Positions 104 to 62,943 of a stretch of DNA of 62,996 bases are shown here, piece by piece. The stretch spans positions 1 to 62,996 of the forward strand of contig WOZP01000044.1 of NCBI GenBank assembly GCA_011620215.1, read 5' to 3'. Positions within the stretch are counted from its first letter, which is position 1; each line of letters begins with the position of its first letter. Made by a program: the position numbers and the translations under genes. The notes beneath the pieces were generated by a model that did no database searches, was not told where the DNA came from, and saw only the letters and a program-made list of their open reading frames with translations. The DNA comes from Rugosibacter sp. (GTDB taxonomy: Bacteria > Pseudomonadota > Gammaproteobacteria > Burkholderiales > Rhodocyclaceae).

Positions 104-127
104 AAAGTCGGCGCTGGCGATACGGCG
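104..127 (+). repeat. Dispersed 24-bp motif, copy 1 (intergenic, between dut 3' end and the IS end)
   Basis: AAAGTCGGCGCTGGCGATACGGCG. Confidence 0.9.
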
Positions 128-148
128 AATAACGATTTATAAGGCTTT

Positions 149-610
149 TTACGCCTTGCCAGTACTACCAAACCCACCAGTTCCACGCTCGCTGGTCACA
201 AACTCATCCACAATATTAAAATTCACTTGCACAACAGGCACAATCACCAACTGCGCCAAACGATCAAGTGGATTAATCGTGAAGGTTTCATGACCGCGAT
301 TCCAGGTTGAAACAAATAACTCACCCTGGTAGTCTGAATCAATTAAGCCCACAAGATTCCCCAGCACAATACCGTGCTTATGCCCCAGACCTGAACGGGG
401 CAGAATCATGGCGGCCAGCGTCGAATCAGCGATATGCATTGCAATGCCTGTTGGGATCAGAATAGTCTCTCCAGGATGAATTTTCATGGCTGCATCAATA
501 CATGCACGCAAATCAATTCCCGCTGAGCCCGGCGTTGCATAATGCGGGGCGTAATGGCCGGAAGCCTCTTTCAGCCGCGCGTCCAACAGTTTCAAATCAA
601 TGGTTGGCAT
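149..610 (-). CDS. dut: dUTP diphosphatase
   Basis: Motifs [38 protein letters not shown]. Start set at MPTID (ORF track extends to 625). Confidence 0.95.
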
Positions 611-10177: not shown

Positions 10178-10921
10178 TTATTTACCATTTCGCTGGAACT
10201 CTCTCAGCAATTTGGCCTCTTCTTGGCTCAAAAACCGTTCCTGCAAAAGATCCGGCCGTCTCTGCCATGTTCGCCCTAGCGCTTGTTTCATGCGCCAAAG
10301 ACGAATTTTTTCATGATTCCCTGATAACAAAACATCAGGAACCTCGCATCCCTCGTACACTTCTGGCCGCGTGTAATGTGGCCAGTCTAACAAACCTGAA
10401 GAAAAAGAGTCCTCAACTACCGACGACTCATCACTCAAGGCTTCCGGCAAGTAACGAATACAGGCATCCATCAAGGCCATTGCCGCAATTTCACCACCAG
10501 ATAAAACAAAATCACCGAGTGATAACTCTTCATCAACACATCGGTCAATGAGCCGCTCATCAATCCCTTCATAGCGGCCACACAACAGAATCGCACCCGG
10601 GCCTGCTGCTAGTTCAATCACCCGTTGCTGCTTGATCGGCGCACCCTGCGGAGAAAGATAAATTACTTTCGCCGCATCACCAGCGCCGACTTTTGCCGCC
10701 TGAATTGCACATTCCAATGGACCAGCCATCATGACCATACCGGGCCCGCCACCATAAGGACGATCATCTACTGTTCGATGAATATCATTCGCCCACTGCC
10801 GAGGATTCCAGCACTCTAACTGCCAGAGCTTGCGAGTCAGCGCCCTCCGCGTGATTCCTGATTCGGTAATTGCCGAAAACATTTCAGGAAACAGGGTTAT
10901 GACATCAAATCGCAAGATCAC
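10178..10921 (-). CDS. trmD: tRNA (guanine37-N1)-methyltransferase
   Basis: [36 protein letters not shown]. Start approximate. Confidence 0.97.
10670..10693 (-). repeat. Dispersed 24-bp motif, copy 2 (inside trmD, encodes KVGAGDAA)
   Basis: Minus strand AAAGTCGGCGCTGGTGATGCGGCG. Confidence 0.9.
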
Positions 10922-17037: not shown

Positions 17038-17691
17038 TTAGACAAGTTCTGGCAACTCGGCAAGAACAGTCGACGAGGCTTTCACCGTCTCACCAACGCC
17101 GACTTTTATGTGGGTTTCAGGAGGCAGATAAAGATCAACGCGCGAACCAAAACGAATGAATCCGTAACGCTGACCACGGGTCATTTTTTCTCCAATATCA
17201 ACATAACAAAGTATCCGTCTTGCAATTAATCCCGCAACCTGGACGCACGTGATATCAAACCCGTCACGCGTCCGAAGGTGTAACGCATTGCGTTCATTTT
17301 CAAGCGAAGCCTTATCCAGGGAGGCGTTCAGGAACTTACCCGGATGGTACCAGCGATTCATAATTTCACCATCAACCGGACTGCGATTTGAATGGACGTT
17401 AAAAACATTCATGAAAATGCTTACTTTCACGCACTCTCGATCAAGCCAGGGATCGCGCGCTGGCTCAATGACAACAATGCGGCCATCCGCCGGCGCTAGA
17501 ACACTTTTTTTCCCTTGTGGAATCGGACGCGCAGGATCACGAAAAAATTGCACGCAAAACACGAAAAAAATCCAGGCTGGAATACTCCATGTCCAACCCA
17601 AAAAATACAAACTCGCTATTGCTGCAACAAGCGCAAAGAAGATAAAAGGCCAGCCTTCGCGAGCAAGAATGGGATGTGGGTAATGATTCAT
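17038..17691 (-). CDS. psd: Phosphatidylserine decarboxylase proenzyme
   Basis: [25 protein letters not shown] cleavage motif. Confidence 0.95.
17083..17106 (-). repeat. Dispersed 24-bp motif, copy 3 (inside psd, encodes KVGVGETV)
   Basis: Minus strand AAAGTCGGCGTTGGTGAGACGGTG (two changes at otherwise near-invariant positions). Confidence 0.8.
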
Positions 17692-27834: not shown

Positions 27835-30108
27835 CTAGCGTCGCGCTTTTGATGGTTTTTTCAACGCCGTTTTTGATGGCGCTTTAGGCATCGTTTTGGA
27901 CAACACTCCGGGCGAATCTGCCAACCGAAAATCAATCTTGCTGGCTTCCATATCGACGCGCACCAATTGCACTCGAACTCGGTCTGATAAACGAAAGCGT
28001 CGGCCGCTACGCTCACCCACCATGGTGTGTGTTTTTTCATCAAAGTGGAAGTAGTCCTGCCCGAGTTCTGAAACATGCACCAGGCCTTCGACGAACACGC
28101 CATCCAGTGCGATGAAAATACCGAATGGAACAACAGAAGAAATGCTGCCCTCAAAGATTTCACCAATTCGATCGCGCATATAATAACACTTAAGCCACGA
28201 CTCCACATCGCGCGTGGCTTCATCAGCACGGCGCTCGGTTTTTGAGCAGTGCAGGCCGATTTCTTCCCAGTTACCCGGCTCATATCGCCGTCTTGCCAGC
28301 GCCGACTTTATGGCTCGATGCACGAGCAAATCAGGATAGCGACGAATCGGCGACGTGAAGTGGGTATAGCTGTCATATGCCAAACCAAAATGGCCCACAT
28401 TATCCGGACTGTAAATCGCCTGCCGCAGTGAACGAAGCATCACGGTCTGGAGTAACTGCCGATCTGGCCGTCCGCCGATTTTGTCTATCAGCGCTGCATA
28501 ATCTTTTGCGCTAGGGTCATTTCCACCACCCAATTGCAGCCCAAAAGTTCCCAAAAAATCGCGCAGCTTTTCCAATCGCTCCGGTGTCGGTCCTTCGTGC
28601 ACGCGATACAGCGTCGGATGCTCTTGCTCATGCAAAAACTCTGAGGCGCATACATTAGCTGCCAGCATGCACTCTTCAATCAACCGATGCGCATCATTGC
28701 GCTCATAGGGCTCGATGCGATCAATCTTGCCGTTTTCATCGAACAGCATCCGGGTCTCAACGGTTTCAAAATCAATCGCACCGCGTTTTTCACGCGCCTT
28801 GGCGAGCTGTCGATAAAGCGCCTCCAATGCTTCAAGATGAGGCAGTACAGGAGCCAGTTTCTCGCAGGCACTGGCATCTTTGTCATAGAGTGCTGCAGCC
28901 ACCTCGGTATATGTCAAGCGCGCGTGAGAAAACATCACCGCAGAATAAAACCGATAGCGTGTAATCGTACCTGTCCCACTGATGGCCATGTCACACACCA
29001 TGCACAGCCGCTCAACTTGCGGATTAAGGGAACACAAGCCATTCGATAATTTCTCAGGCAGCATCGGAATCACGCGGCGCGGAAAATACACCGAGTTTCC
29101 ACGCTCATAGGCATCCTGATCTAACGCCCCCTTTTCTGCGACGTAATGCGAAACATCCGCAATGGCGACGACCAGCCGAAACCCCTTGCCTTGTCGCTCG
29201 CAATAAACTGCGTCATCAAAGTCTCTTGCTGTCTCGCTATCAATGGTTACCAGAGGCAAACCCGTAATATCCTCGCGGCCCTTCCAATCCGACTTGCGTA
29301 CCGCATCGGGCAATTTTTTTGTTTCAGCTAACGCCGCATTTGAGAACTCAAAAGGAAGCTCATGTTTTCTCAGTGCAATTTCAATTTCCATACCGGGGTC
29401 AGCATAATTGCCGAGCACTTCGATAATGCGGCCTATTGGCTGCGAATTCTTGCTGGGCTGCTCGATCAACTCGACCATCACAATCTGGCCCGCAACCGGT
29501 TTAGGTAATTTCCTTGCTCCCTTTTCAGCCGGTGCCAGAAAGATATCCTGACTAATGCGCCGGTTTTCAGGCACCACAAACAACACACCATGTTCTTCGA
29601 GCACGCGCCCAACCAAGGTTTTATTGGCGCGCTCGGTAACCTCGACAATCTTTCCCTCGGGACGCCCTTTGCGATCAACACCGATGACGCGAGCGATCAC
29701 TCGGTCGCCATGCAGCACTTTGTCCATTTCCTTGGGCGAAAGGAAAATGTCATCCGAGCCCTCTTCTGGCGACAAAAAGCCAAAACCATCGGGATGCCCA
29801 ATGATGCGGCCACGAACCAAATCCGCCTTATCTGGAATCAGCCAATCGCCCCGACGATTCTGCATGAGCTGCGCATCGCGCGCCATCGCGCCCAAGCGCC
29901 GCCGGAATGGCTCCATTTCGTCTGCATGAATATCCAGCAATTCAACCAGCCGATCAGTACTCAGCGGCGCGCCTTCGGTCACCAGAATTTGCAGTATGTA
30001 CTCGCGGCTGGGGAGTGGATGTTCATATTGCGCCTGCTCGCGTGCGAACTCAGGATCGGCCCGGCGAATTTTAGAAAGTTTAGCAAGTGATTTTGGTTTG
30101 TTTGACAA
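27835..30108 (-). CDS. rnr: Ribonuclease R
   Basis: GHPDGFGF, TIDSETARDFDDA, HFTSPIRRYPDL, C-terminal S1 domain and basic tail; TTG start. Confidence 0.96.
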   Translation of the reverse strand: MSNKPKSLAKLSKIRRADPEFAREQAQYEHPLPSREYILQILVTEGAPLSTDRLVELLDIHADEMEPFRRRLGAMARDAQLMQNRRGDWLIPDKADLVRGRIIGHPDGFGFLSPEEGSDDIFLSPKEMDKVLHGDRVIARVIGVDRKGRPEGKIVEVTERANKTLVGRVLEEHGVLFVVPENRRISQDIFLAPAEKGARKLPKPVAGQIVMVELIEQPSKNSQPIGRIIEVLGNYADPGMEIEIALRKHELPFEFSNAALAETKKLPDAVRKSDWKGREDITGLPLVTIDSETARDFDDAVYCERQGKGFRLVVAIADVSHYVAEKGALDQDAYERGNSVYFPRRVIPMLPEKLSNGLCSLNPQVERLCMVCDMAISGTGTITRYRFYSAVMFSHARLTYTEVAAALYDKDASACEKLAPVLPHLEALEALYRQLAKAREKRGAIDFETVETRMLFDENGKIDRIEPYERNDAHRLIEECMLAANVCASEFLHEQEHPTLYRVHEGPTPERLEKLRDFLGTFGLQLGGGNDPSAKDYAALIDKIGGRPDRQLLQTVMLRSLRQAIYSPDNVGHFGLAYDSYTHFTSPIRRYPDLLVHRAIKSALARRRYEPGNWEEIGLHCSKTERRADEATRDVESWLKCYYMRDRIGEIFEGSISSVVPFGIFIALDGVFVEGLVHVSELGQDYFHFDEKTHTMVGERSGRRFRLSDRVRVQLVRVDMEASKIDFRLADSPGVLSKTMPKAPSKTALKKPSKARR
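28286..28309 (-). repeat. Dispersed 24-bp motif, copy 4 (inside rnr, encodes KSALARR)
   Basis: Minus strand AAAGTCGGCGCTGGCAAGACGGCG. Confidence 0.9.
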
Positions 30109-30631: not shown

Positions 30632-31762
30632 ATGCTACAGCGCACCCCGCTCTACGCCGCCCATGTTGCCGCTGGTGCCCGCATCGTCGATTTCGCCGGC
30701 TGGGAAATGCCCATTCATTATGGCTCGCAGATTGAAGAACATCATGCCGTGCGCCGCAATGCCGGTCTGTTCGATGTTTCCCACATGTGCGCGCTGGATT
30801 TGATCGGGCCGGACGCCACACGATTTCTGCGCCGCTTGCTTGCGAATGACGTGGCCAAGCTCACCACCGCAGGGCGGGCGCTGTATTCTTGCATGCTCAA
30901 TGCAGCCGGTGGCGTCATTGATGATCTGATCGTCTATTTTTTCACGCCAACGCGCTACCGTATTGTTGTGAATGCAGGCACGACAGAAAAAGATGTGGCC
31001 TGGATGCAAACGCAACTGGCAGGATTTGATGCAAGGATCACTCCCCGCTGCGATGGCAAAGACGAGAGTCAAACAAAAAACGCCCTCGCCATGCTCGCCG
31101 TACAAGGTCCGCAAGCGCGTGAGCTTTTCTATACGGCCTTCCCCGCCAGTCGCGCTGCCACTGAATCACTCGCGCCATTTCATGCCCGCGAATGGCCAAC
31201 GAATAAAGGTGATTGGCTGATTGCACGGACCGGCTACACCGGCGAGGATGGCTTTGAAATCAGCCTGCCAGTCAGCGCTGTAGCAGAAGTTTGGCAGACG
31301 CTGATTGATATCGGCATCAAACCCTGCGGCCTGGGTGCAAGGGATACCTTGCGTCTTGAGGCCGGCATGAATCTTTATGGTCAGGACATGGATGAAACCA
31401 CTTCGCCGCTCGACACAGGGCTTACCTGGACAGTCGATCTGCGCGACACCAACCGCGACTTCATCGGAAAGTCGGCGCTGGTGACACGGCGACAAAAGCA
31501 CCAGTTCGTCGGCTTGTTGCTGCTCGAGCGTGGCATTTTGCGCGCACACCAGAAAGTGTTCAGTCCGCTGGGTGAAGGTGAGATCACCAGCGGTACATTT
31601 TCGCCTACACTCAACCAATCCATCGCTTTCGCACGTCTGCCTATGAGCATTATTTTGGGCAGCGAAGTCGAGGTCGACATCCGTGACAAACGCCTCAAAG
31701 CCAAAGTTGTCAAACCAGTTTTTGTTCGCAACGGAAAATCTTTACTCGAATTTACAACCTAA
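30632..31762 (+). CDS. gcvT: Glycine cleavage system aminomethyltransferase T
   Basis: [37 protein letters not shown]. Confidence 0.97.
31468..31491 (+). repeat. Dispersed 24-bp motif, copy 5 (inside gcvT, encodes KSALVTR)
   Basis: AAAGTCGGCGCTGGTGACACGGCG. Confidence 0.9.
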
Positions 31763-32159: not shown

Positions 32160-35005
32160 ATCCTTTGCTTCGCCCGCTTGCCGAGCTCGAACAGCGCGAT
32201 GAATTCGTCGCCCGCCACATCGGACCGGATGAGGATGAAATCGGGCAAATGCTTGCCGTGATCGGCATCGATTCACTGACTGCATTGATTGATGCCACCG
32301 TGCCCGCAGCCATCCGGCTGAATCGTCCGCTGGACTTGCCCGCAGCCATGTCCGAGCAGGCGGCGCTGGCAAAATTACGCACGATTGCTGAAAAAAACAG
32401 TGTCAAGAAATCCTATATCGGCCTTGGCTATTACGGCACGCACACGCCACCGGTGATACTGCGCAACCTGTTTGAAAATCCCGGCTGGTACACCGCCTAC
32501 ACGCCCTATCAAGCAGAAATTTCACAAGGCCGGCTAGAGGCGCTAATCAACTTTCAGCAGATGGTGATTGATCTGACCGGCATGGAAATCAGTAACGCCT
32601 CGCTGCTCGATGAAGCCACCGCAGCGGCTGAAGCCATGGCCATGGCGCGGCGCATTGCCAAGGTGGAGAGCAATGCGTTTTTTGTCGATGAAGGCTGCTT
32701 TCCGCAAACCATTGCCGTGCTCAAAACCCGTGCCGCCGGTTTTGGTTTCGATCTGATCTTCGGCCGCCCGGAAGAGGCTGGCCAGCACAAAGTATTTGGC
32801 GCGCTGCTGCAATATCCGAATGTGCATGGCGCAATCGCCGATCTTTCCGCACCCATCGCCGCGATAAAGAATGCCGGTGGCATCGTGGCCGTTTCCTCCG
32901 ATTTGATGGCGCTGGTGCTGCTCAAGCCACCAGGGGAAATGGGCGCGGACATTGTGCTCGGCTCATCCCAGCGGTTTGGCATACCGATGGGTTACGGTGG
33001 ACCGCATGCCGCGTTTTTCGCCACACGCGAGAACTACGTTCGCGCCATGCCAGGACGCATCATCGGCGTCTCGAAAGATGCCCGCGGAAAACCTGCCTAC
33101 CGCATGGCGCTGCAAACCCGTGAGCAGCATATCCGCCGCGAGAAAGCGAATTCCAACATCTGCACATCGCAAGTCTTGCTCGCCAACATGGCCGGCATGT
33201 ATGCGGTCTGGCACGGACCGCAGGGGCTACGCGCGATTGCCGGCCGTATTCATCGACTGGCGGCATTACTGGCGCAGGCATTGGGCATTGAGGGTGCATT
33301 TTTTGACACGCTCACTGTAAAAGTCGGCGCTGGTGATACGGCGAAGAGTCATGCTGCGGCGGTAGCAGCGGGCTACAACCTGCGTGCAGTCGATGCGACA
33401 ACACTCGCCATCAGCATCGACGAGACCGTCACGCGCGAAGACATCACCTGCCTGTTGGCACTTTTCGGCAAATCGGCTGACCTCGATGCCGTCACGCCAT
33501 GCGCCATTCCCGCTGCACTGCAGCGGACCTCCACCTTCCTCACCCATCCCGTATTTAATTCGCATCACACCGAGCATGGTCTGCTGCGCTATCTCAAGCG
33601 CCTGCAAAATCGCGATCTCGCACTCGATCATTCGATGATCCCGCTCGGTTCCTGCACCATGAAGCTGAATGCCGCTGCCGAAATGATTCCCGTGTCATGG
33701 CCGGAATTCGCGCAGATGCATCCCTTTGCCCCGCGCGAGCAGGCACAAGGTTATGCGCAACTGTTTCATGAGCTTGCAGCGCAACTCATGGCCATCACCG
33801 GTTTTGATGCCATCTCGCTCCAGCCGAATTCCGGCGCGCAGGGCGAGTATGCGGGCCTCACCGCAATCCGCCGCTATCAGGCCAGTTGCGGCGAGGCGCA
33901 CCGCGCCATCTGCCTGATCCCCAAATCAGCGCATGGCACCAACCCAGCCACGGCACAGATGTGTGGCCTCGAGGTAATCGCCGTAGCTTGTGATGCGCAA
34001 GGCAATATCGATCTTCCCGATCTTGAGGCTAAAGCGGCTCAACACGCAACAAAACTTTCCTGCCTGATGCTCACCTACCCTTCTACGCATGGCGTATTCG
34101 AAGAAGCGGTCAAAGATATCTGTGCCATCATTCACGCGCACGGCGGCCAGGTGTATATGGACGGCGCCAATCTCAATGCCCAGGTCGGCCTCACGCGCCC
34201 GGCGGATATTGGCGCCGACGTTGCCCACATCAATCTGCACAAGACCTTCGCCATCCCGCACGGCGGTGGCGGGCCGGGCATGGGGCCGATAGGGGTCAAG
34301 GCCCATCTTGCACTTTTTTTGCCGGGGTATGACTTTTCGCAAAACAATTTTCCGGAAACCAGTACGCAAGGCGCTGTTTCTGCTGCACCATGGGGCTCGG
34401 CCGCCATTCTGCCCATTTCATGGATGTACATTACGCTACTGGGCGCCGCAGGTGTGCAGCGCGCCAGCGAAATCGCCATTCTCAACGCCAACTATATTGC
34501 CGCACGCCTAGCCGAACACTACCCGGTGCTCTATACCGGCACACAGGGTTTTGTGGCGCATGAATGCATTCTGGATATTCGTACGATCAAGAACAGTACC
34601 GGAGTGACTGAAAGCGATATTGCCAAACGCCTGATGGACTATGGCTTTCATGCGCCAACAGTGAGCTTCCCGGTAGCCGGTACGCTGATGGTGGAACCCA
34701 CCGAATCGGAAAATCGGGCTGAGCTAGATCGTTTTTGTGACGCAATGCTATCGATCCGCGAAGAAATTCTCTGCATCGAACGTGGCGAATGGCCGCTGGA
34801 AAACTCGCCACTCAAGCACGCACCGCATACCAGTACCGATCTGGTTGCCGAATGGACGCGGCCTTATACACGCAAAACAGCGGTTTTTCCGCTGCCTTGG
34901 GTAGCGACAAATAAATTCTGGCCATCGGTAAATCGGATTGACGATGCCCATGGGGATCGCGCTTTGTTTTGCGCCTGCGTTCCCCTTGAAGAAAGTATCG
35001 GATAA
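32156..35005 (+). CDS. gcvP: Glycine dehydrogenase (decarboxylating), P protein
   Basis: [49 protein letters not shown]. Confidence 0.97.
33320..33343 (+). repeat. Dispersed 24-bp motif, copy 6 (inside gcvP, encodes KVGAGDTA)
   Basis: AAAGTCGGCGCTGGTGATACGGCG. Confidence 0.9.
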
Positions 35006-45446: not shown

Positions 45447-45570
45447 GCACTCTCCTGATGATTGACGAATAAAACTACAGGGTTGCTACAACCTGCACAA
45501 ATATACCCATAATGTGCAACAGTACGCTACAGGCATATTCATTGCGCCAAAATCACCCGATAAAACAGAA

Positions 45571-46635
45571 TTAACTGATCGCCTCGGCAATCGCACGCCC
45601 GATATCCTGCGTTGATGCTTTTCCACCCAAGTCTGGCGTTTTCGGTCCCTCTTGGAGCACGGTTTCAATCGCCCGCACAACAGATTCAGCCGCTTCAGTG
45701 TGACCTAGGTGATCAAGCATCATCGCACCGGACCAGATCATGCCAATGGGGTTGGCAATGTTCTGGCCGTAAATATCCGGGGCAGAACCGTGCACGGGCT
45801 CGAACATCGACGGATAAAGACGCTCGGGATTCAGATTGGCTGAGGGCGCAATAGCGATTGTGCCAGTACATGCCGGGCCCAGGTCAGACAAAATGTCGCC
45901 AAAAAGATTAGAGCCGACAACCACATCAAAGCGATCTGGAAAGCGAACAAAGTGCGCCGTCAAGATATCAATATGATATTGATCCGTCGCCACATCGGGA
46001 TAGTCTGCCGCTACTGCCCGGAAACGCTCATCCCAAAACGGCATGGTAATCGAAATACCATTGGATTTAGTAGCCGAGGTGAGGTGTTTGCGCACACGCC
46101 GACGAGTCAGTTCAAAGGCATAGCGCATGATGCGGTCCGTTCCATGGCGTGAAAATATGCTTTCCTGCACAGCAATTTCGCGCTCAGTGCCCTCGTACAT
46201 TCGGCCACCGGCTGAAGAATATTCGCCTTCCGAATTTTCACGCACAATGATGAAGTCAATATCACCCACCTTGCGATTTGCCAGCGGAGAAGCGACGCCG
46301 GGCATGAGTCGCACTGGTCGTACGTTGGCATATTGATCAAATTCACGACGAATCCTGATCAATAAACCCCAGAGCGAAATATGGTCCGGCACGAGTGATG
46401 GTAAACCCACAGCGCCAAGATAAACCGCGTCATGGTGGCGAATTTTCTGCAATCCATCCTCGGGCATCATGCTGCCGTGTTTCACATAGTAATCGCAACT
46501 CCAGGGAAGCTCGTCATACTCAAGGGAAAAGCCATAACGTGAGGCAACAGTATCCAAAACGCGCTGCCCTTCCGGCATCACTTCTTTGCCAATGCCATCG
46601 CCTGCAATAACTGCAATCTTGTGTTTTTTTATCAT
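45571..46635 (-). CDS. Tartrate/D-malate dehydrogenase (decarboxylating), isocitrate/isopropylmalate DH family
   Basis: GDGIGKEV, PDHISLWG, RENSEGEYS, ATKSNG, SNLFGDILSD, FEPVHGSAPDI. Confidence 0.9.
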   Translation of the reverse strand: MIKKHKIAVIAGDGIGKEVMPEGQRVLDTVASRYGFSLEYDELPWSCDYYVKHGSMMPEDGLQKIRHHDAVYLGAVGLPSLVPDHISLWGLLIRIRREFDQYANVRPVRLMPGVASPLANRKVGDIDFIIVRENSEGEYSSAGGRMYEGTEREIAVQESIFSRHGTDRIMRYAFELTRRRVRKHLTSATKSNGISITMPFWDERFRAVAADYPDVATDQYHIDILTAHFVRFPDRFDVVVGSNLFGDILSDLGPACTGTIAIAPSANLNPERLYPSMFEPVHGSAPDIYGQNIANPIGMIWSGAMMLDHLGHTEAAESVVRAIETVLQEGPKTPDLGGKASTQDIGRAIAEAIS

Positions 46636-46656
46636 CAAAATTTTTTCTTCAGCGCG

Positions 46657-47667
46657 TTATTTTGCGTAGGTATCCAGCACGCTCAGTATCCGGTCAGCGG
46701 CCACTAGCGTTGGCACTTGCAAGCCAAACTCATGCGCTTTTTCAATAATCGGCTTAAGAATCCAGGGAGCTTCCGACTTGCGGTGATGCAACACATCATC
46801 ATGCATCGATGTACGGCTGCGAATGCCTTTGGCTTGCAGTTGCTGCGCCATGGACATTATTCCATCACAAGCATCATCAAAGCTTTTTGCTTCGTGAACC
46901 TCTTTTAATCTGGACAGCGGAGCATAAAAGTTTTGTGGGGTATACCCCATGCGGGTGTACACGGAAAGAATCTCGTAACCAAGCGTGACATAATGCTCTG
47001 CCCCCGCCCTCAGTACCGCCCCTTCATTAAAAGTCAGCTCAGGATTGCCTGGCAACGTGCTTGCAGACCAGGCAGAGGCGTTACATATCTGGCAAAGCTT
47101 TTCCCACAATACCTGGCGAATGCAGGTGACTGCTTTCGAGGGTAAGCCGGCGCTATTCATCGCTGCAACGAGCTTTTCAGCACGCGGACTCACGGTACCA
47201 TCCAACTCACCCGCATAAAAAGTAGTGGTGGCGGTAATGTGATTCAAGACAATGCCCGGTGCCTCCAGAGTTCCCCCTTCAATAATGGAAACACCCAAGA
47301 CTTTTGCCTCACCAGCCCATTGTGCCAGCAAACTTTCTTTGACGATATTGTTTTGCAAAGAAACGACCGTCGCACAGCGATCTTTCAGGCGAATAGCATC
47401 GTTAAGGGCTTCTGCTGTATCTTTGGATTTGACAGCAAGTATGAAGTAATCAAACTCACCCATGGCTTGATCCGGATGAGTGACAGCTGTCAGGTTTTCC
47501 TTGATCAGATGCTCTCCGCGACGCTGCCCATGTATCCGCAAACCATTTTTTCGAATAGCCTCTGCATGAGAAGGGCGCGCAATCAGGGTGACGTCAACAC
47601 CTGCTTCTGCAAGATACCCGCCAACGACAGAACCAAGCCCTCCGCCACCTAGAATACATATTCTCAT
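46657..47667 (-). CDS. Ketopantoate-reductase (PanE/ApbA)-like oxidoreductase
   Basis: GGGGLG Rossmann motif, AVKS, SLQN, WEKL, TSMHDD...SE. Confidence 0.82.
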   Translation of the reverse strand: MRICILGGGGLGSVVGGYLAEAGVDVTLIARPSHAEAIRKNGLRIHGQRRGEHLIKENLTAVTHPDQAMGEFDYFILAVKSKDTAEALNDAIRLKDRCATVVSLQNNIVKESLLAQWAGEAKVLGVSIIEGGTLEAPGIVLNHITATTTFYAGELDGTVSPRAEKLVAAMNSAGLPSKAVTCIRQVLWEKLCQICNASAWSASTLPGNPELTFNEGAVLRAGAEHYVTLGYEILSVYTRMGYTPQNFYAPLSRLKEVHEAKSFDDACDGIMSMAQQLQAKGIRSRTSMHDDVLHHRKSEAPWILKPIIEKAHEFGLQVPTLVAADRILSVLDTYAK

Positions 47668-47685
47668 TACGCGCCCCTAGTCGAA

Positions 47686-48648
47686 TTAAGCGACGCCAAG
47701 TTCGCGTAGTTTTGCCGCGACTTGCTCGAACCGCTCCCTGCTGGGGCTGCGCACTGGCGGAATCACCGGGCCCGCTTTTAGACCAATGGCTTCATACCAA
47801 GCTTTCAGCGTGCCAAGTGCACCAGCGTAAGTGGCTGTGGCCGCAATGGTCCACAAAAACTCTTCTTCATAATAAGTACGCACACCCTCCAGCCCGAGCC
47901 ATGCTTGGCGCGCTTCCTCATGCTTGCCTTCAGCCGACAAGCGCACGTAATCTTTAACCAAATGTCGTTTTTTGCCATACAGCATATAGGAGAGCTCGCC
48001 CCACAACACTTGACCACCTGCGCGCTGCTCATCTAGCAACCAGTATTCAGAAGGCTCCATGACGATGAAGTCAGGCCGCATCAAGCGGCGCAGGCGCAGT
48101 GTCACAGCACGGTTGAGCTCGCCTTGTTTGGCTCCAATGACGGTGTCAATATCCGCCAGCCGGTTCATCAGGTCAACACCAAGAACCTTGCCAGAAACCG
48201 GCGTACGGTATAGACAAACGGCCAAGTCAGAGCGGTCGGTGACATATTTGAACCAGTCGAAAATTTCGTCGTCCGTGCGCAACTGGATCACCGGGTTGAT
48301 CACCTCGGCACCGTTGTAGCCGAGCTTTTCAACGAACGCCATTTTCTCAACAGCCACACTCGCTTCCGGGTCAAGAATGATGGTCCATAAATCCATCCGG
48401 CCTTTGACAGCATCAGCAACTACCTCATGATAACGATTCCATTCGGCTGGCTTGACATTCCAGCATTCCGAAATAAAGCCGCCAACGACGAGGCCATCAA
48501 TCCCCATATCCACATATTTTTCAATGTTTTCTCGAAGGCCTGCTTCGTCAAATTTAAAATCCGGCGTGACGGGTGACAGAGGGCACATGTAAAGCCCACG
48601 TACATTCTTCAGCGCCCATTGTTTTGCTTCTTTACGCGTAAATTCCAT
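47686..48648 (-). CDS. DHDPS/NAL-superfamily class I aldolase-like protein (not DapA)
   Basis: DEAGLRENI, GGFISE in place of GTTGE, LYRTP (Tyr), GAKQG (Schiff-base Lys). Confidence 0.82.
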   Translation of the reverse strand: MEFTRKEAKQWALKNVRGLYMCPLSPVTPDFKFDEAGLRENIEKYVDMGIDGLVVGGFISECWNVKPAEWNRYHEVVADAVKGRMDLWTIILDPEASVAVEKMAFVEKLGYNGAEVINPVIQLRTDDEIFDWFKYVTDRSDLAVCLYRTPVSGKVLGVDLMNRLADIDTVIGAKQGELNRAVTLRLRRLMRPDFIVMEPSEYWLLDEQRAGGQVLWGELSYMLYGKKRHLVKDYVRLSAEGKHEEARQAWLGLEGVRTYYEEEFLWTIAATATYAGALGTLKAWYEAIGLKAGPVIPPVRSPSRERFEQVAAKLRELGVA

Positions 48649-48764
48649 AACTACTCTCCTCCGTTAAAAATTTCGACTCCATTGGCCGAAAATAAGTGAA
48701 CCAGAAAAAATGGCAACCTTCACCCACTAACCTGCACCACCGGCAACCTGGCTAATTACCAAAC

Positions 48765-50228
48765 TCAAATACCCACCGGCGATGTTTTTACATCAACAAA
48801 CTCGAACAAGCCTTCAATCCCCCCTTCGCGGCCATAGCCCGATTGCCTCATGCCACCAAACGGTGCCTCAGGTGCGGGGCCAGTGCCGGTATTCCAGGCG
48901 ACATGCTGAAAGTGCAAACCCTCGACAAACCGTTGAGCGCGTGCAGAATTTTGAGTGAAAATATAAGAAGCCAAACCATATTCGGTATCGTTCGCCTTCA
49001 GCATCGCATCATTTTCATCATCAAATTCCGCGATAGGCACCAAAGGCCCAAAGGTTTCCTCATTCCAGCAAGCCATTGTGCGATTAACGCCTGAAATAAC
49101 CGTTGGCGGAAAAAACCCTCCCCATTCTTTCTCCAGTGGCGGCGGCAACGCATCGGCCACCGCACCTGCCACCAACTGTGCGCCTTTTGCCATGGCATCG
49201 GTCAAATGATGACGTACTTTTTCATATCCCGCGCGATCCACCAGTGGCCCAATGTCCGTTTCATCATCCAGGCTATTTCCCAAGCGCAAGGCATTGACCC
49301 GGATTGTCAGTCGTTTGGAAAATTCAGCGGCAATTGAACGTTCAACAAGTATCCGATTAGCGCAAACACAAGTCTGCCCGCTGCCACGAAATTTATTCAC
49401 CATGAGTTGATCAACCGCCTTGTCCATATCCGCATCGGCAAAAACAATATATGGCGCGTTGCCGCCCAATTCGAGCGCAACGCGTTTCACTTGCGCGGCG
49501 CTCTTGACGATGAGCTCCTTGCCCACTTCAGTCGAACCCGTAAAACTAATCACAGCGACATCAGGGTGCGTTAGCAACGCATCGGCGATAGCGCCCGCCG
49601 AACCGGGTACGAGATTGGCCCAACCGGCAGGCAGCTGCACCTCTCGCTCTAGCAACGCAAACAAGGCAATCATTGTCAGCGGCGTTTTAGATGCCGGCTT
49701 GATAATGCTTGCGCATCCGGCCGCCAGTGCGGCTGAAAGTTTCTTGGCGATCATGCCGATAGGAAAGTTCCACGGCACGATAAGACCCACCACACCGGCT
49801 GGACGATACAGCACCCGCCACTCGCAACCACGCGGACGCTCTTCCAGCACCCGTGACTTGAGATGATCAATGTTCGCTGCGCAATAAGTGAAAAATCCTG
49901 CAGCGTAATCAACTTCCGCCTTGCCTTCCCGCCAGGGTTTACCGTGTTCCAGGCAGAGGATACGACCAATTTCATCGCGATTCTTGACAAGCGCCGACGC
50001 AATGTTCTCCAGCCATTCACGACGTTTTTCAATGGTTGGGGTATTCGCCATAGCGCGGCTGGCAGCACTAATCGCGAGCAACGTCTCGTCACCCCCCATG
50101 CGCGCCACTTGCGCGAGCACATCGCCCGTAGCGGGATTGATCACTGGAAAAGTTTGCCCGCCATCGGCCGCACACCAATGGCCGTCAATATAGCCACCGG
50201 CCACGGGGATGAGAGGGGAAGAAATCAT
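48765..50228 (-). CDS. NAD(P)-dependent aldehyde dehydrogenase, succinate-semialdehyde DH (GabD)-like
   Basis: PWNFP, FTGSTEVG, LELGGNAP, GQTCVCANR, EETFGP, PFGG..QSG.GREG. Confidence 0.92.
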   Translation of the reverse strand: MISSPLIPVAGGYIDGHWCAADGGQTFPVINPATGDVLAQVARMGGDETLLAISAASRAMANTPTIEKRREWLENIASALVKNRDEIGRILCLEHGKPWREGKAEVDYAAGFFTYCAANIDHLKSRVLEERPRGCEWRVLYRPAGVVGLIVPWNFPIGMIAKKLSAALAAGCASIIKPASKTPLTMIALFALLEREVQLPAGWANLVPGSAGAIADALLTHPDVAVISFTGSTEVGKELIVKSAAQVKRVALELGGNAPYIVFADADMDKAVDQLMVNKFRGSGQTCVCANRILVERSIAAEFSKRLTIRVNALRLGNSLDDETDIGPLVDRAGYEKVRHHLTDAMAKGAQLVAGAVADALPPPLEKEWGGFFPPTVISGVNRTMACWNEETFGPLVPIAEFDDENDAMLKANDTEYGLASYIFTQNSARAQRFVEGLHFQHVAWNTGTGPAPEAPFGGMRQSGYGREGGIEGLFEFVDVKTSPVGI

Positions 50229-51140: not shown

Positions 51141-51164
51141 AAAGTCGGCGCTGGTAATACGGCG
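51141..51164 (+). repeat. Dispersed 24-bp motif, copy 8 (directly after the YccA-family stop codon)
   Basis: AAAGTCGGCGCTGGTAATACGGCG. Confidence 0.9.
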
Positions 51165-51181: not shown

Positions 51182-51212
51182 AAAAAAGCGACCCTGCGGG
51201 GCCGCTTTTTTT
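51182..51212. terminator. Bidirectional intrinsic terminator between the YccA-family gene and rlmD
   Basis: AAAAAAGCGACCC-TGCG-GGGCCGCTTTTTTT. Confidence 0.8.
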
Positions 51213-52552: not shown

Positions 52553-53701
52553 ATGATGCCTGAATTATCTACTCTGCTCGGCGGCCTCACGCCTGAACGT
52601 TTTCTTGCCGAATACTGGCAAAAAAAACCCTTGCTGGTGCGCGGTGCCGTACCGGAAATCAACCAACTCATGAGCCGCAATGATCTCTTCCATCTGGCGA
52701 CAGGCGAAGACATTGAATCTCGCCTGATTACTCGCGCTGATGGCTGGCAAATGCACCACGGGCCGTTTTCATTGCGCCAACTCAAGCGTGCCGCGCTGCC
52801 CTGGACTGTGCTGGTGCAAAGCGTCAACCTCGCCCATGCGGCGGGCGATGCGCTTTTGCGACGCTTTGATTTCATCCCCTATGCGCGGCTGGATGACTTG
52901 ATGGTGAGCTACGCCACCGATACTGGCGGCGTCGGCCCGCATTTCGACAATTATGATGTTTTCCTGATTCAAGGCATGGGAAGTCGGCGCTGGCATATCG
53001 GCAAGCAAAAAGATAAAACCCTGATCGACGACCTGCCCATTCGCATCATCAAGGATTTTCGTCCTACGCAAGAATGGCTGCTCAATCCAGGTGACATGCT
53101 CTACCTGCCCCCGCAGTGGGCGCACGATGGCGTCGCCGTCGGCGAGTGCATGACTTTTTCTGTTGGCTTTCGCACCCCCACGGCACAGGAATTAGGCGAG
53201 CAGTTTCTCTCCTTTTTGCAAGAGCGGCTGAGCTTGCCCGGCCGTTACAGCGACCCGGATTTGAAAAAGCCACGGCATGCCGCTGAAATTGGCACGGCCA
53301 TGATAGATCAAGTGGAGACGATGCTTTCCAGCATTCGCTGGAACCGCACCACGGTACGCAACTTCTTGGGAACCTCGCTCACCGAGCCCAAAGCCAACGT
53401 ATTTTTCGACCCACCGGCGCACCCGCTGACCATAGCCCGCTTTGCCGCTGCAGCCAAGCGCAAGGGCGTTGTACTCTCCCCTGCCAGCCAATTGCTGTTT
53501 TCGGGAAACCAGTTTTATCTCAATGGAGAAGACTGGAAAATGCCTGCCCACGTGAAGCCCCTCATACGTGAACTTGCCAACCACCGCACCCTGAAAATAG
53601 CGCAACCAACCGGTGTAGCGCTTGCCAAAGATGTACTTGATGACGCTGTCGGCCTGCTGTATGAAGCCTATTGCGATGGATTTCTCTGGCCAGCATCATG
53701 A
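52553..53701 (+). CDS. JmjC/cupin-4 protein (YcfD/RoxA-like ribosomal oxygenase)
   Basis: WQKKPLL, RLDDLMVS, GGVGPHFDNYDVFL, PGDMLYLPP..AH, SVGFR. Confidence 0.9.
   Translation: MMPELSTLLGGLTPERFLAEYWQKKPLLVRGAVPEINQLMSRNDLFHLATGEDIESRLITRADGWQMHHGPFSLRQLKRAALPWTVLVQSVNLAHAAGDALLRRFDFIPYARLDDLMVSYATDTGGVGPHFDNYDVFLIQGMGSRRWHIGKQKDKTLIDDLPIRIIKDFRPTQEWLLNPGDMLYLPPQWAHDGVAVGECMTFSVGFRTPTAQELGEQFLSFLQERLSLPGRYSDPDLKKPRHAAEIGTAMIDQVETMLSSIRWNRTTVRNFLGTSLTEPKANVFFDPPAHPLTIARFAAAAKRKGVVLSPASQLLFSGNQFYLNGEDWKMPAHVKPLIRELANHRTLKIAQPTGVALAKDVLDDAVGLLYEAYCDGFLWPAS
52980..53003 (+). repeat. Degenerate copy of the 24-bp motif (inside the cupin gene, encodes SRRWHIG)
   Basis: GAAGTCGGCGCTGGCATATCGGCA: left arm and CGGC kept in register, middle diverged. 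Confidence 0.5.
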
Positions 53702-57982: not shown

Positions 57983-58915
57983 ATGCAACCCAGCGAACAT
58001 CATTTGCTTTTAACCCAGCTACTGACTGACATTAACCGCATTATTCTTGGTAAAAAAGAACCCGTCCGCATGGCGTTGGCCTGTTTGCTTGCTGGTGGTC
58101 ACTTGCTGGTCGAAGACTTGCCCGGTGTCGGTAAAACAACGCTGGCGCATGTGCTGGCGCGAGTACTGGGGCTCGACTTGCAAAGGATCCAGTTCACCAG
58201 TGACATGCTACCCGCCGACATTATCGGCGTCTCGGTGTTTGATCGGGCCAGTGGGGCATTTCATTTTCACCCCGGCCCGATTTTCACGCAGATGGTGCTG
58301 GCCGACGAACTCAACCGCGCCACACCCAAAGCACAAAGCGCGCTGCTCGAAGCCATGGAAGAACGGCAAGTCACCATCGAAGGAGCAACGCGCGCGTTGC
58401 CCGCGCCTTTTTTTGTCATTGCCACGCAAAACCCGGCGTTTCAAATCGGCACCTTTCCCCTGCCTGAGTCACAACTCGATCGTTTCCTGCTCAAGATTGA
58501 ACTGGGTTATCCCGATGCCGCCGCCGAGCGTGAACTCCTCGCGGGAGCGGACCGCCGCCAGATGGTGGCCGAACTCACCCCGCGCCTTTTGCCGCCCCAA
58601 TTGCTCGAATTACAGCAAAAAACGCGCAGCGTACACGCCTCGCCCGCGCTGATAGCCTACATTCAGGCACTGGCCGCCTTCACGCGCAGCTCGCCGTTAT
58701 GGGTAGCCGGTTTATCCCCGCGAGCAGGCCTCGCTCTGCTCGCCGTTGCCCGTGCCTGGGCGCTGCTTGATGGCCGCGATCACGTGCTGCCGGAAGACGT
58801 TCAAGCAGTGCTCCCTGGCGTTATCGCGCACCGACTGCGCTTTCACGATGACACCAGAAAAGTCGGCGCTGGTGAGACGGCGAACCGGCTTATCGAGGCC
58901 GTGCCACTGCCCTGA
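57983..58915 (+). CDS. MoxR-family AAA+ ATPase
   Basis: PGVGKT Walker A, ADELNR, QSALLEAM, ATQNP, LPESQLDRF, SPR. Confidence 0.94.
   Translation: MQPSEHHLLLTQLLTDINRIILGKKEPVRMALACLLAGGHLLVEDLPGVGKTTLAHVLARVLGLDLQRIQFTSDMLPADIIGVSVFDRASGAFHFHPGPIFTQMVLADELNRATPKAQSALLEAMEERQVTIEGATRALPAPFFVIATQNPAFQIGTFPLPESQLDRFLLKIELGYPDAAAERELLAGADRRQMVAELTPRLLPPQLLELQQKTRSVHASPALIAYIQALAAFTRSSPLWVAGLSPRAGLALLAVARAWALLDGRDHVLPEDVQAVLPGVIAHRLRFHDDTRKVGAGETANRLIEAVPLP
58859..58882 (+). repeat. Dispersed 24-bp motif, copy 9 (inside the MoxR gene, encodes KVGAGETA)
   Basis: AAAGTCGGCGCTGGTGAGACGGCG. Confidence 0.9.
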
Positions 58916-59928: not shown

Positions 59929-61885
59929 CCGCCCGGTAAGCCGCCGCCAAAGCCAGTGGCTTCTGCTGGCTGCTGTCACCGCGTTTGCTCCCTTGGCCAC
60001 GCATATGCCGGTGTGGCTGGCCGTATTCGCTGGTGCGGCCTTTGTCTGGCGTGGCTGGATCATTCAACGCGGTGGACGCTTACCGCCGCGTTGGCTGCTC
60101 GTGTTATTGGTCATCGCCGGTTCGCTGGGTGTCTTTTTTGAATATCGCAGCCTGTTTGGCCGCACGCCGGGCATTGCGCTGCTGCTGATTTTTCTCTCGC
60201 TCAAGCTCATGGAACTCCGCGCCCCACGCGATGCAGTAGTGACCGTGTTGCTGTGTTACTTTTTAATCCTCGGGCAGTTTTTATTTACCCAAACGATCCT
60301 CACCGCCTGCGTCACCTGCCTTGCCGTTGTCATTACCACCGCCGCCTTGCTCGCGGCCAATAATGATCGGCCAACCATCAAGCAACAATTCGAGCACGCA
60401 GGTCGCCTGCTGTTGCAAGCGCTGCCCTTCATGCTGTTGCTGTTTGTTCTTTTCCCTCGCGTGAACGGCCCGTTGTGGGGCCTGCCCGAAGACCGCCGCA
60501 CAGCGCTTTCCGGGCTCACCGATGCCATGGCGCCGGGCACCATTGCACAGCTTTCACAGTCAGACGCCATTGCTTTTCGCGTCGCGTTTACCGGCGCATT
60601 TAAAGGTATAGCCCCCGCGCAATCCAGCCTGTATTGGCGCGGCCTGGTGATGCCTGATTTTGATGGACGCACCTGGCGCGTCTCACAAACCCGTGAGGCC
60701 TACACCACCCCGCCGTATGCTGAAGAAAGCAGGCATAGCAAGCCAATCGACTATGAACTCACCCTCGAGCCGCACGGCAAACGCTGGCTCTTCGCACTGG
60801 AATCCCCCACCACGCTGCCTGCGGAAAGCGGCCTTACCCGCGACTATCAATTGTTATCCCGGCAACCTGTGCGCAGCCGCATGCGCTACACGCAGCGCGC
60901 CGTGCCGGATATCCAAAAAGGCCTGACCGACCCGCCAGAGGTTTTGCAAGAGTCTCTAGCCTTGCCCAAAAACAGCAACCCGCGCACCCGAGCCATAGCG
61001 ATCAGCTGGAGGCAACGTCATGGCGACAATGACGCTGCCATTTTGCAAGCAGCCGAAGATTTTTTTAGTCGCCAGCTGTTGCGCTACACCCTCAACCCGC
61101 CCCTTACCGGCAGCGATAGTGTCGATGAATTCTTGTTCGACAACAAACGGGGCTTTTGCGAGCACTTTGCTTCTGCCTTTGCCTTTGCCCTGCGTGCCGC
61201 CGGTGTCCCCGCGCGCGTCGTGGCCGGGTATCAAGGCGGTGAGATCAACCCCGTCGACGGGTTTCTGGTCGTGCGCCAATATGACGCCCACGCCTGGACG
61301 GAAGTATGGCTGTCCAAACAGGGCTGGGTGCGCGTAGACCCGACCGCCATTGCCGCACCACGGCGCATTGACAGCAGCCTGGCCACCGCCATCCCGGCAA
61401 ATGAAACCCTGCCTTTTTTAGCGCGCAATGACATGGCCTGGCTCAAGGCCATTCGTTACCAGATCGACGCCGTCACCAACGGCTGGAACCAATGGGTGCT
61501 GGGGTATGACCCGCAACGTCAGCGCGATTTATTAACGCGCCTCGGGCTGGATGCCGATTGGCGCAACATGACAGCTCTCTTGACTATCCTCTGCGGCGCG
61601 TCCTTGCTGCTGCTTACCGGCTGGGTGCTGCGCCAGCGCGAGCGTATCGATCCCGTCCGCCGTGCCTGGCAGCGCTTTACCGCCAAACTCGCCAAGCGCG
61701 GCATTGTTTGGCAGCCGTGGGAAGGGCCAGACACCCTGGCTGCACGCGCGGCTAGCCAACTCCCCGCGCACGCGACAAAAATTCACGCCATCGCCCGCAG
61801 TTACGCCCGCCTGCGCTATGCTGCCCACCCGCCCAGCAAGGGCTTGGTCGAACTCAATCAATCCATCCGCGACTTGTCACTATGA
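59915..61885 (+). CDS. TgpA-like transglutaminase-domain membrane protein
   Basis: N-terminal TM domain, YWRG, GFCEHFA, PARVVAGYQGG, AHAW.E, DPT. Confidence 0.92.
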   Translation: MARLDRPVSRRQSQWLLLAAVTAFAPLATHMPVWLAVFAGAAFVWRGWIIQRGGRLPPRWLLVLLVIAGSLGVFFEYRSLFGRTPGIALLLIFLSLKLMELRAPRDAVVTVLLCYFLILGQFLFTQTILTACVTCLAVVITTAALLAANNDRPTIKQQFEHAGRLLLQALPFMLLLFVLFPRVNGPLWGLPEDRRTALSGLTDAMAPGTIAQLSQSDAIAFRVAFTGAFKGIAPAQSSLYWRGLVMPDFDGRTWRVSQTREAYTTPPYAEESRHSKPIDYELTLEPHGKRWLFALESPTTLPAESGLTRDYQLLSRQPVRSRMRYTQRAVPDIQKGLTDPPEVLQESLALPKNSNPRTRAIAISWRQRHGDNDAAILQAAEDFFSRQLLRYTLNPPLTGSDSVDEFLFDNKRGFCEHFASAFAFALRAAGVPARVVAGYQGGEINPVDGFLVVRQYDAHAWTEVWLSKQGWVRVDPTAIAAPRRIDSSLATAIPANETLPFLARNDMAWLKAIRYQIDAVTNGWNQWVLGYDPQRQRDLLTRLGLDADWRNMTALLTILCGASLLLLTGWVLRQRERIDPVRRAWQRFTAKLAKRGIVWQPWEGPDTLAARAASQLPAHATKIHAIARSYARLRYAAHPPSKGLVELNQSIRDLSL

Positions 61886-62943
61886 AATTGAACTACGTGA
61901 AATACCTTTTCCTGCTCTGCCTGTTCTTGACGTTACCTGCGCAGAGTCAAACCAATCACCAAGCCAACAGCTATGCCGAGCGTGAGGATGTCAAAGCATT
62001 CATTGACCAGATGGTCACCGAATACAGTTATGACCGCATGACACTCGATGCACTGTTTCGCGTCACCCAACCCATCGCTTCGGTGTTAAAAGCCATCCGC
62101 CCGCCCGCCGACCCAGGCATCCGTTCATGGCACGCCTACCGCAGCCGCTTTGTCGAGCCCACGCGCATCGCCGCCGGCAAACAATTCATGCAGCGTTACG
62201 CCAGCGAACTGGCTGCCGCGCAAACACGCTTTGGCGTGCCCGCTGAAATCATCACCGCGATCATTGGCATCGAAACGATTTATGGCAAGCACATGGGCAA
62301 CTACACCACCTTTGCCGCCCTCACCACACTGGCTTTTGACTACCCGCCGCGCGCTGAACTCTTCCGCCGCGAGCTGGCCGAATTGCTCCTGCTGGCCAGG
62401 GAAGAAAACCGCCCGATATTGAGTTATACCGGCTCCTATGCAGGCGCCATGGGTTGGCCACAGTTCATGCCATCGTCCATGCGCCAATACGCGCTGGATT
62501 TCGACAACGACGGCAGGATTGATCTCGCCGCCAGCCCCGTGGATGCGATTGGCAGCGCGGCGAATTTTCTGGCCAAACATGGCTGGCAAACGGGCGGCCC
62601 GATTGCTGAAACAATCACCATCAGTGGCGACGGTATTCAAGCCTTGATTGATGAAGGCATCAAGCCGCAACGCCTGCCCCGCGAATTCTCTGCACAGCAG
62701 GTAGAGATACAAAAAGTCGGACAAAAAGTCGGCCAAAAAGTCGGCGATGGTGATACGGCGGCAAATCATCAATTCAGCGACCAACCCGCCGCCTTGATCG
62801 ACCTCATCACCCCCGACGCGCCCACCGAATACCGCCTGGGCTACCAAAACTTCTATGTCATCACCCGCTACAACCGCAGCAGCTTCTACGCCGCTGCGGT
62901 GATGGATCTGGCTGAGGCGTTGAAAGACTCAGCCATTGACTAA
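61882..62943 (+). CDS. mltB: Lytic murein transglycosylase B
   Basis: IIGIET.YG, TLAFDYP.R, GSYAGAMG.PQFMPSS, NFYVITRYNRS..YA. Confidence 0.94.
   Translation: MKLNYVKYLFLLCLFLTLPAQSQTNHQANSYAEREDVKAFIDQMVTEYSYDRMTLDALFRVTQPIASVLKAIRPPADPGIRSWHAYRSRFVEPTRIAAGKQFMQRYASELAAAQTRFGVPAEIITAIIGIETIYGKHMGNYTTFAALTTLAFDYPPRAELFRRELAELLLLAREENRPILSYTGSYAGAMGWPQFMPSSMRQYALDFDNDGRIDLAASPVDAIGSAANFLAKHGWQTGGPIAETITISGDGIQALIDEGIKPQRLPREFSAQQVEIQKVGQKVGQKVGDGDTAANHQFSDQPAALIDLITPDAPTEYRLGYQNFYVITRYNRSSFYAAAVMDLAEALKDSAID
62710..62760 (+). repeat. Dispersed 24-bp motif, copy 10 (62737-62760), whose left arm is part of a 12-bp unit tandemly present three times, inside mltB
   Basis: CAAAAAGTCGGA CAAAAAGTCGGC CAAAAAGTCGGC GATGGTGATACGGCG = QKVGQKVGQKVGDGDTA. 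Confidence 0.9.

Follow-up and report, generated by a model that had tools for sequence, protein, structure and literature searches.

A 25-bp word repeated across the genomes of Rugosibacter and relatives as a candidate uptake-type tag of self-DNA

What keeps one and the same asymmetric word in genes as unrelated as trmD, rnr and gcvP? The question is raised by a 62,996-nt contig (WOZP01000044.1) of the Rugosibacter sp. assembly GCA_011620215.1, referred to here as the window, that is, the whole stretch of DNA analysed. An original prediction made from its letters had described ten near-identical 24-bp copies and proposed that a sequence-specific reader maintains the word across the chromosome. 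On balance, the results presented here make the word a likely third uptake-type tag, comparable with, although not a member of, the DNA uptake sequences (DUS) of Neisseriaceae or the uptake signal sequences (USS) of Pasteurellaceae. New in this study are a clade-wide constrained DNA signal and a layer of tiny units inserted in the word, whose homing is putative. No description of the word was found in a literature search whose coverage left most subscription journals and paper supplements outside.

A 25-bp word in the window and across the genome

All ten copies were recovered at the positions and on the strands originally given, without any mismatch to AAAGTCGGCGNTGGNNANNCGGNG; none of 100 dinucleotide shuffles of the window contained a match to it. 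As had been described, seven copies lie within unrelated open reading frames, which can now be named (trmD, psd, rnr, gcvT, gcvP, a MoxR-type ATPase gene and mltB), all seven in the sense direction, and three lie in spacers. The copies and related sites are:

104..127, plus strand: word copy in the spacer past the dut 3' end (41 bits)
10670..10693, minus strand: word copy in trmD, sense, in a KVGAG-type frame
17083..17106, minus strand: word copy in psd, sense, in a KVG-type frame, aligning without gaps to a word-free ortholog
28286..28309, minus strand: word copy in rnr (RNase R), sense, read as IKSALARRR, of substitution origin and present in 13 of 13 rows of one supported clade
31468..31491, plus strand: word copy in gcvT, sense
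33320..33343, plus strand: word copy in gcvP, sense, which together with base 33319 is the commonest 25-mer of the genome
41451..41474, minus strand: word copy in the spacer upstream of queD
51141..51164, plus strand: word copy right after the yccA stop, adjoining and not within a terminator-like hairpin (51182-51211)
52979..53003, plus strand: weak site in a JmjC-domain gene (17.0 bits), left half only
58859..58882, plus strand: word copy towards the 3' end of a gene for a MoxR-type AAA ATPase, sense
62713..62736, plus strand: two in-frame 12-nt left-arm repeats immediately 5' of the mltB copy
62737..62760, plus strand: word copy in mltB, sense

The ten copies score 38-45 bits, so that the degenerate copy formerly noted at 52980 does exist, but as a much weaker site. 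Contigs from an independent public sequencing run traverse three window copies, each unbroken, indicating that these three are no assembly artefact; the junctions at copies in those contigs derive from other copies. None of the tiny insert units was found in the window's copies, and an Rfam search of the window matched only tRNAs and a glycine riboswitch, the word being unmatched.

Within a 2.38-Mb assembly (G000) of 220 contigs, 90% complete and with 54% G+C, the window is contig C48, and its RNase R belongs to a 90%-identity cluster that also holds Rugosibacter proteins. The 10-mer core of the word is the most frequent 10-mer of this genome (353 copies), and an iterated weight matrix converged on a word of 25 bp, AAAAGTCGGCGCTGGYGANACGGCG, carrying 36 bits. 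The initial length of 24 bp thus described the word except for one extra conserved 5' A (86%), whereas the A that follows 8 of the 10 window copies is found at only 37% of sites genome-wide and falls outside the word. A genome-wide scan with this matrix yielded 472 sites of at least 16 bits, against 2 in a same-size fifth-order Markov genome, so that the word is not confined to the window but spread at about one copy per 5 kb. Locating 472 sites would need approximately 13 bits, compared with the 36 bits carried. The flanks hold no information, the edges being sharp and no flanks shared. At 15 core positions, perfect copies outnumber one-mismatch copies (286 versus 122; 0 and 2 for the reversed control), and the scaffold of the word, AAAGTC-N12-ACGGC, is matched 127 and 128 times on the two strands.

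Placement relative to genes was assessed for 447 sites of at least 22 bits, using genes from a home-made caller (89% coding). Of these sites, 289 (65%) are genic, 148 intergenic and 10 span a gene end, with densities per kb of 0.14 in genes and of 0.48, 0.58 and 1.21 in divergent, co-directional and convergent spacers, respectively. The genic copies are split into 155 sense and 134 antisense (P=0.24), and use all six frames with strong preference (sense 116, 36 and 3; antisense 45, 11 and 78; n=289). In the main frame, which reads KVGAGDTA, the codons are fixed as Val GTC (106/106), Ala GCT (90/90) and Thr ACG (107/107), whose genome shares are 25, 16 and 29%, a fixation of synonymous positions that is partly built in by the score threshold. 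No stable fold or hairpin of the word was detected (z -0.45 to -1.37). The constraint acts on DNA, not on a peptide or an RNA.

Spacing between copies is more even than random. Only 25 gaps below 1 kb were counted, against 64.5 expected, a deficit matched by none of 500 shuffles, and the ratio of observed to expected pairs is 0.20 below 500 bp, 0.57 up to 1 kb, 0.66 up to 1.5 kb and about 1 beyond. Copies therefore avoid each other below 1.5 kb, and no surplus of half-sites was found beside them. Their single, unpaired arrangement, already remarked upon in the window, holds for the genome, where the 447 sites include only 4 neighbour pairs within 300 bp (2 of them inverted).

Comparison with orthologs points to replacement as the usual origin of a copy. 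At the rnr site, an alignment of 30 rows shows a gap-free codon replacement in a conserved HRAIKA stretch that uses ATA, a rare codon for Ile; it is shared by each of the 13 rows of the clade and by none of the others. Among 31 coding sites for which a word-free ortholog was available, 21 are gap-free in at least one. Between G000 and a second genome, G010, 34 of the 35 site pairs that align without gaps have the word in both members, with 91% identity at the sites versus 84% for the aligned blocks. Together, these comparisons indicate that copies are old, kept and mostly overwritten onto pre-existing sequence. The proposed sequence-specific maintenance across the chromosome is thus borne out by the 472 copies, the fixed synonymous positions, the conserved orthologous sites and the missing Rfam match.

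Distribution along the chromosome, among relatives and in viruses

The closed 2.93-Mb chromosome of G010 (skew switch near 1.55 Mb) contains 160 exact matches, 76 on the plus and 84 on the minus strand. The inferred origin has 24 copies within 200 kb and the inferred terminus 21, with 21.8 expected, and no periodicity was found between 10 and 117 kb (best P=0.066); a role in segregation, one of those suggested initially, lost ground for want of any origin, terminus or periodic pattern.

The largest voids of this chromosome extend over 80-150 kb. Twelve 20-kb pieces were taken from such voids: seven are free of copies and have no sequence in common with G000, and the other five share 7-99% with it and contain 1-4 copies. 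The empty pieces encode TraC, TraH, TrbE, Z1, AIPR, restriction endonuclease and efflux proteins (Pfam hits for 14 of 23 scanned), so that the word is missing from the conjugative and defence islands sampled. Genes in the least typical quintile of codon usage hold 1.03 copies per 10 kb, versus 1.37-1.62 in the others.

When the scaffold was counted in 61 related genomes, 130-677 matches were obtained in 18 of them, comprising all 13 of the genus plus five other genera, and 0-6 in the remaining 43. NCBI places Rugosibacter in Sterolibacteriaceae; the GTDB labels of carriers, among the matches listed (80 of 122 loci), are Sulfuritalea, Sulfurisoma, Rugosibacter, Methyloversatilis and unclassified Rhodocyclaceae, with one hit each in a Rhodoferax and in a gammaproteobacterial bin. 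An RNase R tree built from 30 rows groups the genus with G013, G014 and G022 in one clade (support 99/98), with G032 close to that clade and G024 outside it. The last genome carries a dialect, AAAAGTCAGTC-N8-ACGGCG, whose ends and spacing are those of the word and which occupies 43 sites in 220 kb. Word-free genomes are interleaved with carriers, suggesting that the reader has been gained, lost or transferred. A de novo search for other dialects in small samples (20-96 kb) of eight word-free relatives revealed none. Four otherwise word-free genomes (G050, G031, G033 and G020), one of them of another family, hold 1-3 good copies, which are likely traces of DNA from carriers.

The word was also found in approximately 160 viral stretches and the dialect in 18, and viral DNA around a seed match holds one more copy per 10 kb. 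In 49 whole viral records (1.55 Mb) the scaffold was hit 77 times and the reversed control never, compared with 107 hits per Mb in the host; 45 of these 77 hits are expected from the choice of records, and 32 are left after dropping one per positive record. A tyrosine integrase was present in 12 of the 49 records.

Copies also occur in cassette arrays. One viral record (G079, L197:2431-4105) contains a tandem array of five non-coding cassettes of 316 bp, all of which have an attC-like end and a single word copy. In the window's assembly, an integron-like cassette array (G000:C178:1-5681; L387) comprises attC-like ends, a HigAB pair and an MT-A70-like gene adjoining a nuclease-like gene, and holds four word copies and one copy filled by an inserted unit; pieces of host gene ends (75-130 bp) plus the word are duplicated around its cassette blocks. 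An integron integrase was found in each of the four congeners examined for it.

Tiny units inside the word

Five families of units of 18-60 nt sit at fixed positions inside the word, a feature that had gone unnoticed in the original prediction. They were found by flank comparison and a split-word scan, using only families at inner positions (chance A-runs occur elsewhere), and were counted by eye, an automatic flank filter being too strict (13/23, 9/14, 0/16, 0/2 and 10/20). In G000, the 27/45-nt unit, which has a hairpin of the CCCC-TT-GGGG type, lies inside a copy in all 23 cases, occupying the right box when it runs on the same strand as the word and the left box when it is on the opposite one. 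The 60-nt unit follows base 12 of the word in 13 of 14 cases and the 21-nt unit follows the A-run in 15 of 16. The 24-nt and 18-nt units are found in copies (2/2), or in or nested within them (14/20), respectively. In total, about 59 inserts occupy about 50 copies, that is, about one copy in ten. Unit lengths are multiples of three except for two 17-nt variants, and some units stand in frame in core genes, including that for ComEC. Comparison of G000 with G010 revealed filled and empty orthologous sites either way, four being filled in the former and two in the latter.

Among the 61 genomes, the 60-nt unit was detected in 16, all of them carriers, with 128 of 146 hits directly following the left arm (judged by eye). 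Hits of the 27-nt unit numbered 65 and were spread over 11 genomes, with 63 in word copies and 2 in hairpin repeats of the word-free G019 (C35:100756 and C40:154623); the repeats at these two sites resemble Ssn-related motifs (SRM), a likeness judged by the pattern given in PMC11893778. Two 18-nt units lie outside the word in a transposase-like gene (G000:C148:6219 and 6318), this unit being less specific than the others, and the sole 60-nt unit of the dialect genome is in a Rugosibacter-type copy (G024:C1:82965), perhaps on transferred DNA.

The own position of each family and the presence of one unit in another abundant repeat probably fit spread by flank homology better than a cutter targeted to the word. 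The word would then act as a landing strip of 470 copies, in which a unit in one copy has flanks matching all others, and units would spread via short-homology exchange, with every family keeping to a fixed position of its own. An Rfam search of units at three loci gave no match, and the 60-nt unit plus its flanks was unmatched in a plasmid collection.

Parallels exist with small repeats elsewhere. As in NTS and SRM repeats, and in repetitive extragenic palindromic (REP) elements with their associated tyrosine transposases (RAYT), the tiny units end in short hairpins, and a subset of the carriers possesses RAYT-like and Ssn-like genes. However, NTS are hairpins of which 2% lie inside genes (PMC11893778), whereas the word forms no hairpin and is genic in 65% of its copies; the RAYT-like and Ssn-like genes are flanked neither by the word nor by units and are missing from some carriers. 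REP or SRM hairpin repeats were discarded on these grounds. As a mobiliser, the RAYT-like gene was found in G010, G022, G002 and G007 but not in G000, G001, G005 or G032, scored under the NCBIfam cut-off and had no flanking units; the Ssn-like genes are flanked by repeats of their own.

A closer parallel is offered by HIP1 of cyanobacteria, likewise a hyper-abundant conserved word in genes and spacers whose function is unsettled, and for which a role in DNA transfer has been proposed (PMC13756078). Indeed, the very small repeat SDR5 inserts precisely within HIP1 (Elhai 2015, PMC4390886, citing Elhai 2008), much as the units do in the word. HIP1 is, however, an 8-bp palindrome tied to two methyltransferases and periodic at 10-90 kb (PMC5861425), whereas the word has 25 bp, is asymmetric and non-periodic, and hosts five or more insert families that differ in position. 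Its asymmetry sets it apart from the HIP1 kind of short palindromes with orphan methyltransferases.

A candidate self-DNA tag and its alternatives

Helsem et al. (2025; PMC12616744) name only Neisseriaceae and Pasteurellaceae, both host-associated, as families with sequence-specific uptake. The word shares with DUS and USS a long list of traits (PMC2817400; PMC2397512; Redfield et al., PMC1626085; also PMC12616744): all are non-palindromic, present in hundreds of copies on both strands, evenly spaced and under-used in coding DNA, with preferred frames, a substitution origin, an excess of perfect over near-perfect copies and lineage dialects that keep the core. DUS and USS are also scarce in recently acquired DNA; for the word, the seven island pieces picked from gaps hold no copies, and an evenly spread sample gave P=0.14. 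Terminator pairing apart, the word behaves like them in the statistics tested, scarcity in acquired DNA being tentative. Nevertheless, it belongs to neither: its sequence is unrelated, with 25 contiguous informative bases, two GC-rich boxes and families of tiny inserts. DUS words occur 0-19 times in G000, which gave no PF16732 hit, the two USS cores occur 5 and 30 times, and the logo lacks the AT-rich flank of USS; with 0-30 occurrences of those cores, the resemblance to them once seen in the arms of the word is unsupported.

If the word is an uptake-type tag, a candidate receptor of the natural-transformation pathway, acting at the cell surface or in the periplasm of presumably competent cells, would favour word-bearing fragments, whose alleles would then be replaced by homologous recombination. 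Better-matching fragments would enter and recombine more often, and matches would accumulate where proteins tolerate them, so that a clade-specific 25-bp tag would come to be written into some 470 places by substitution. One copy per fragment would be enough, which may be why copies exclude each other below approximately 1.5 kb. Conversion tracts of 1.1-1.7 kb match DUS spacing according to Treangen et al. (PMC2397512). Molecular drive by biased transformation (Findlay and Redfield, PMC2817400) is the best-supported account of the excess information, the use of both strands, the replacement origin, the absence from conjugative islands, the dialects and the exclusion at fragment scale. A bolder form of this reading, possible but rather doubtful, holds that the word is an independent third self-DNA tag of twice the known core length, with a receptor that is neither ComP nor ComN, and that its copies serve as a homing platform for enzyme-free 18-60-nt units that write peptides into core proteins.

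Genes for parts of the required machinery are present. Full-length comEC was found in all 37 genomes of the family, carriers or not, PilQ, PilT-family and DprA proteins each in 5 of 5 carriers, a ComEA-sized helix-hairpin-helix protein in 9 of 18 carriers and a pilE cluster in 10 of 12 congeners. Hits of 790 aa in the ComEA search were taken, from their length, to be Tex. Two word copies lie in comEC in each of four loci of the genus, and comEA and pilE often have one copy upstream. Type IVa-kind pilins were not found in G000, whose contig ends where pilA lies in G010. In the latter (C1, about 2049100-2049750; L461:9100-9750, minus strand), the major pilin is a 59-aa N-terminal pilin, behind which come genes for a distinct secreted protein and for an ABC transporter, a layout that presumably resembles PilA-N/PilA-C of Geobacter. 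The pilE-fimT-pilVW clusters (L294-L313) are of two unrelated types, swapped among close relatives of one genus.

Several observations weigh against an uptake function, which is itself predicted from population statistics. No receptor candidate tracks the word among PF16732 proteins, pilE-fimT clusters, major pilins, ComEC and ComEA, and no ComP- or ComN-like receptor was found. PF16732 occurs in 52 of 61 genomes irrespective of the word and is missing from G000, the minor pilins of carriers are not basic, and their pilE-fimT clusters are of the two unrelated types mentioned above, so that the ComP-like pilin put forward as a reader finds no support. Equally, comEC is as common in word-free genomes, and one ComEC alignment column separates 6 carriers from 4 non-carriers. 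The ComEA-sized protein was not found in the other 9 of the 18 carriers, including the closed G024, by a search with a lossy first look. The word is present at pilT in 0 of 4 loci and at dprA in 2 of 5, and no enrichment at competence genes is therefore claimed. Its density is 0.2 per kb, compared with 0.8-0.9 for DUS and USS, and the few close pairs contrast with the pairing of those sequences in terminators. In addition, 10 of the 31 coding sites are gapped in every word-free ortholog, and the 41 gap-free alignments match on average 13.0 of 25 bases, none scoring as a copy, which implies a long walk by point mutation; molecular drive alone explains neither these 12-base jumps nor the missing ComEA hits. 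The seven empty void pieces are a selected sample, and in twenty pieces spread evenly, shared DNA had 2.0 copies per 10 kb and unshared DNA 1.5 (P=0.14), a contrast blurred by the gaps of the 90% complete G000. Finally, a weak leading-strand excess was observed in G010 (101/160, 63%, P=0.001), to be read against 57% +/- 8% for same-letter words in that genome, 21/41 in G024 and 149/269 in G000.

Alternatively, a cytoplasmic protein that organises the chromosome, through the nucleoid, condensin loading or segregation, may bind the word, with selection acting at each site. ComEA would not be required, even spacing, conservation and the use of both strands would agree, and Xu et al. argue for such a role of HIP1 (PMC5861425). 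However, this seems unlikely given the lack of origin or terminus bias and of a 10-117 kb period in G010, the tolerance of 80-150 kb voids and an information content of 36 bits, far beyond the need of a binding site; selection at each site would also have to prevail over the amino-acid replacements in RNase R, UvrC and LolD. A receptor-free selfish overwriting, in which short-homology ectopic exchange lets copies convert one another as well as near-matches, with the units carried along, would suit the 12-base differences of word-free orthologs with few intermediates, the whole-lineage dialects, and the family-specific unit positions in many unlinked copies, which need inter-copy exchange or a site-specific step. 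Yet copying predicts random or clustered spacing instead of exclusion below 1.5 kb, and the conservation of sites above background between species, the lack of a hairpin and the failure to find a writer enzyme make this process quite improbable.

Chi, KOPS, matS and SlmA sites are chromosome-wide non-palindromic or short signals in core DNA, and known Chi words have 5-8 nt. Compared with them, the word lacks strong replichore polarity or an origin or terminus zone and is much longer, and it was not assigned to Chi, KOPS or matS. A Chi-like self-tag or recombination hot spot, read in the cytoplasm by an end-resection or defence nuclease, would agree with a density of about one per 5 kb, the absence from foreign islands, the lower density in viruses, the leading-strand excess in G010 and the gathering of inserts and short duplications at the word; with a polarity so far from that of Chi or KOPS in view of the controls given above, and with such a length, it is assigned a distinctly low probability. 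The sense orientation of all seven genic window copies and the ten sites gapped in outgroups might suggest a motif acting in RNA or in a peptide, or else the insertion of a short repeat belonging to the REP, SRM or miniature inverted-repeat class. This is already largely refuted by the genome-wide strand split, which rules out a sense-strand RNA motif, and by gap-free replacement at most sites, and with six frames in use, no Rfam family, no stable fold, sharp edges and no shared flanks it is very improbable indeed.

Should the word be an uptake-type tag, a third case, in free-living bacteria of groundwater, soil and wastewater, would mean that uptake bias evolves repeatedly. It would provide an independent test of the molecular-drive model, with the exclusion scale of about 1.5 kb predicting fragment size, point to a new sequence-specific DNA receptor and open a route to the transformation of Sterolibacteriaceae that degrade hydrocarbons or oxidise sulfur. 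In viral contigs, the dialects are marks of the host lineage, and the filled and empty alleles make the movement of very small repeats such as SDR5 testable. Should uptake fail, a 36-bit word kept at hundreds of genic sites would be stranger still.

Other features of the window include the glycine riboswitch aptamer upstream of gcvTHP (30372-30485, plus strand) and two tRNA genes (30151-30234 and 43021-43105, both on the plus strand). On the minus strand, a gene cluster at 44082-50228 encodes TrpB-like, tartrate dehydrogenase, ketopantoate reductase-like, DapA-like and aldehyde dehydrogenase proteins, and 9.6 kb around it are word-free. Along the whole window (1-62996), G+C climbs from 46% to 58%, and the GC skew is negative throughout.

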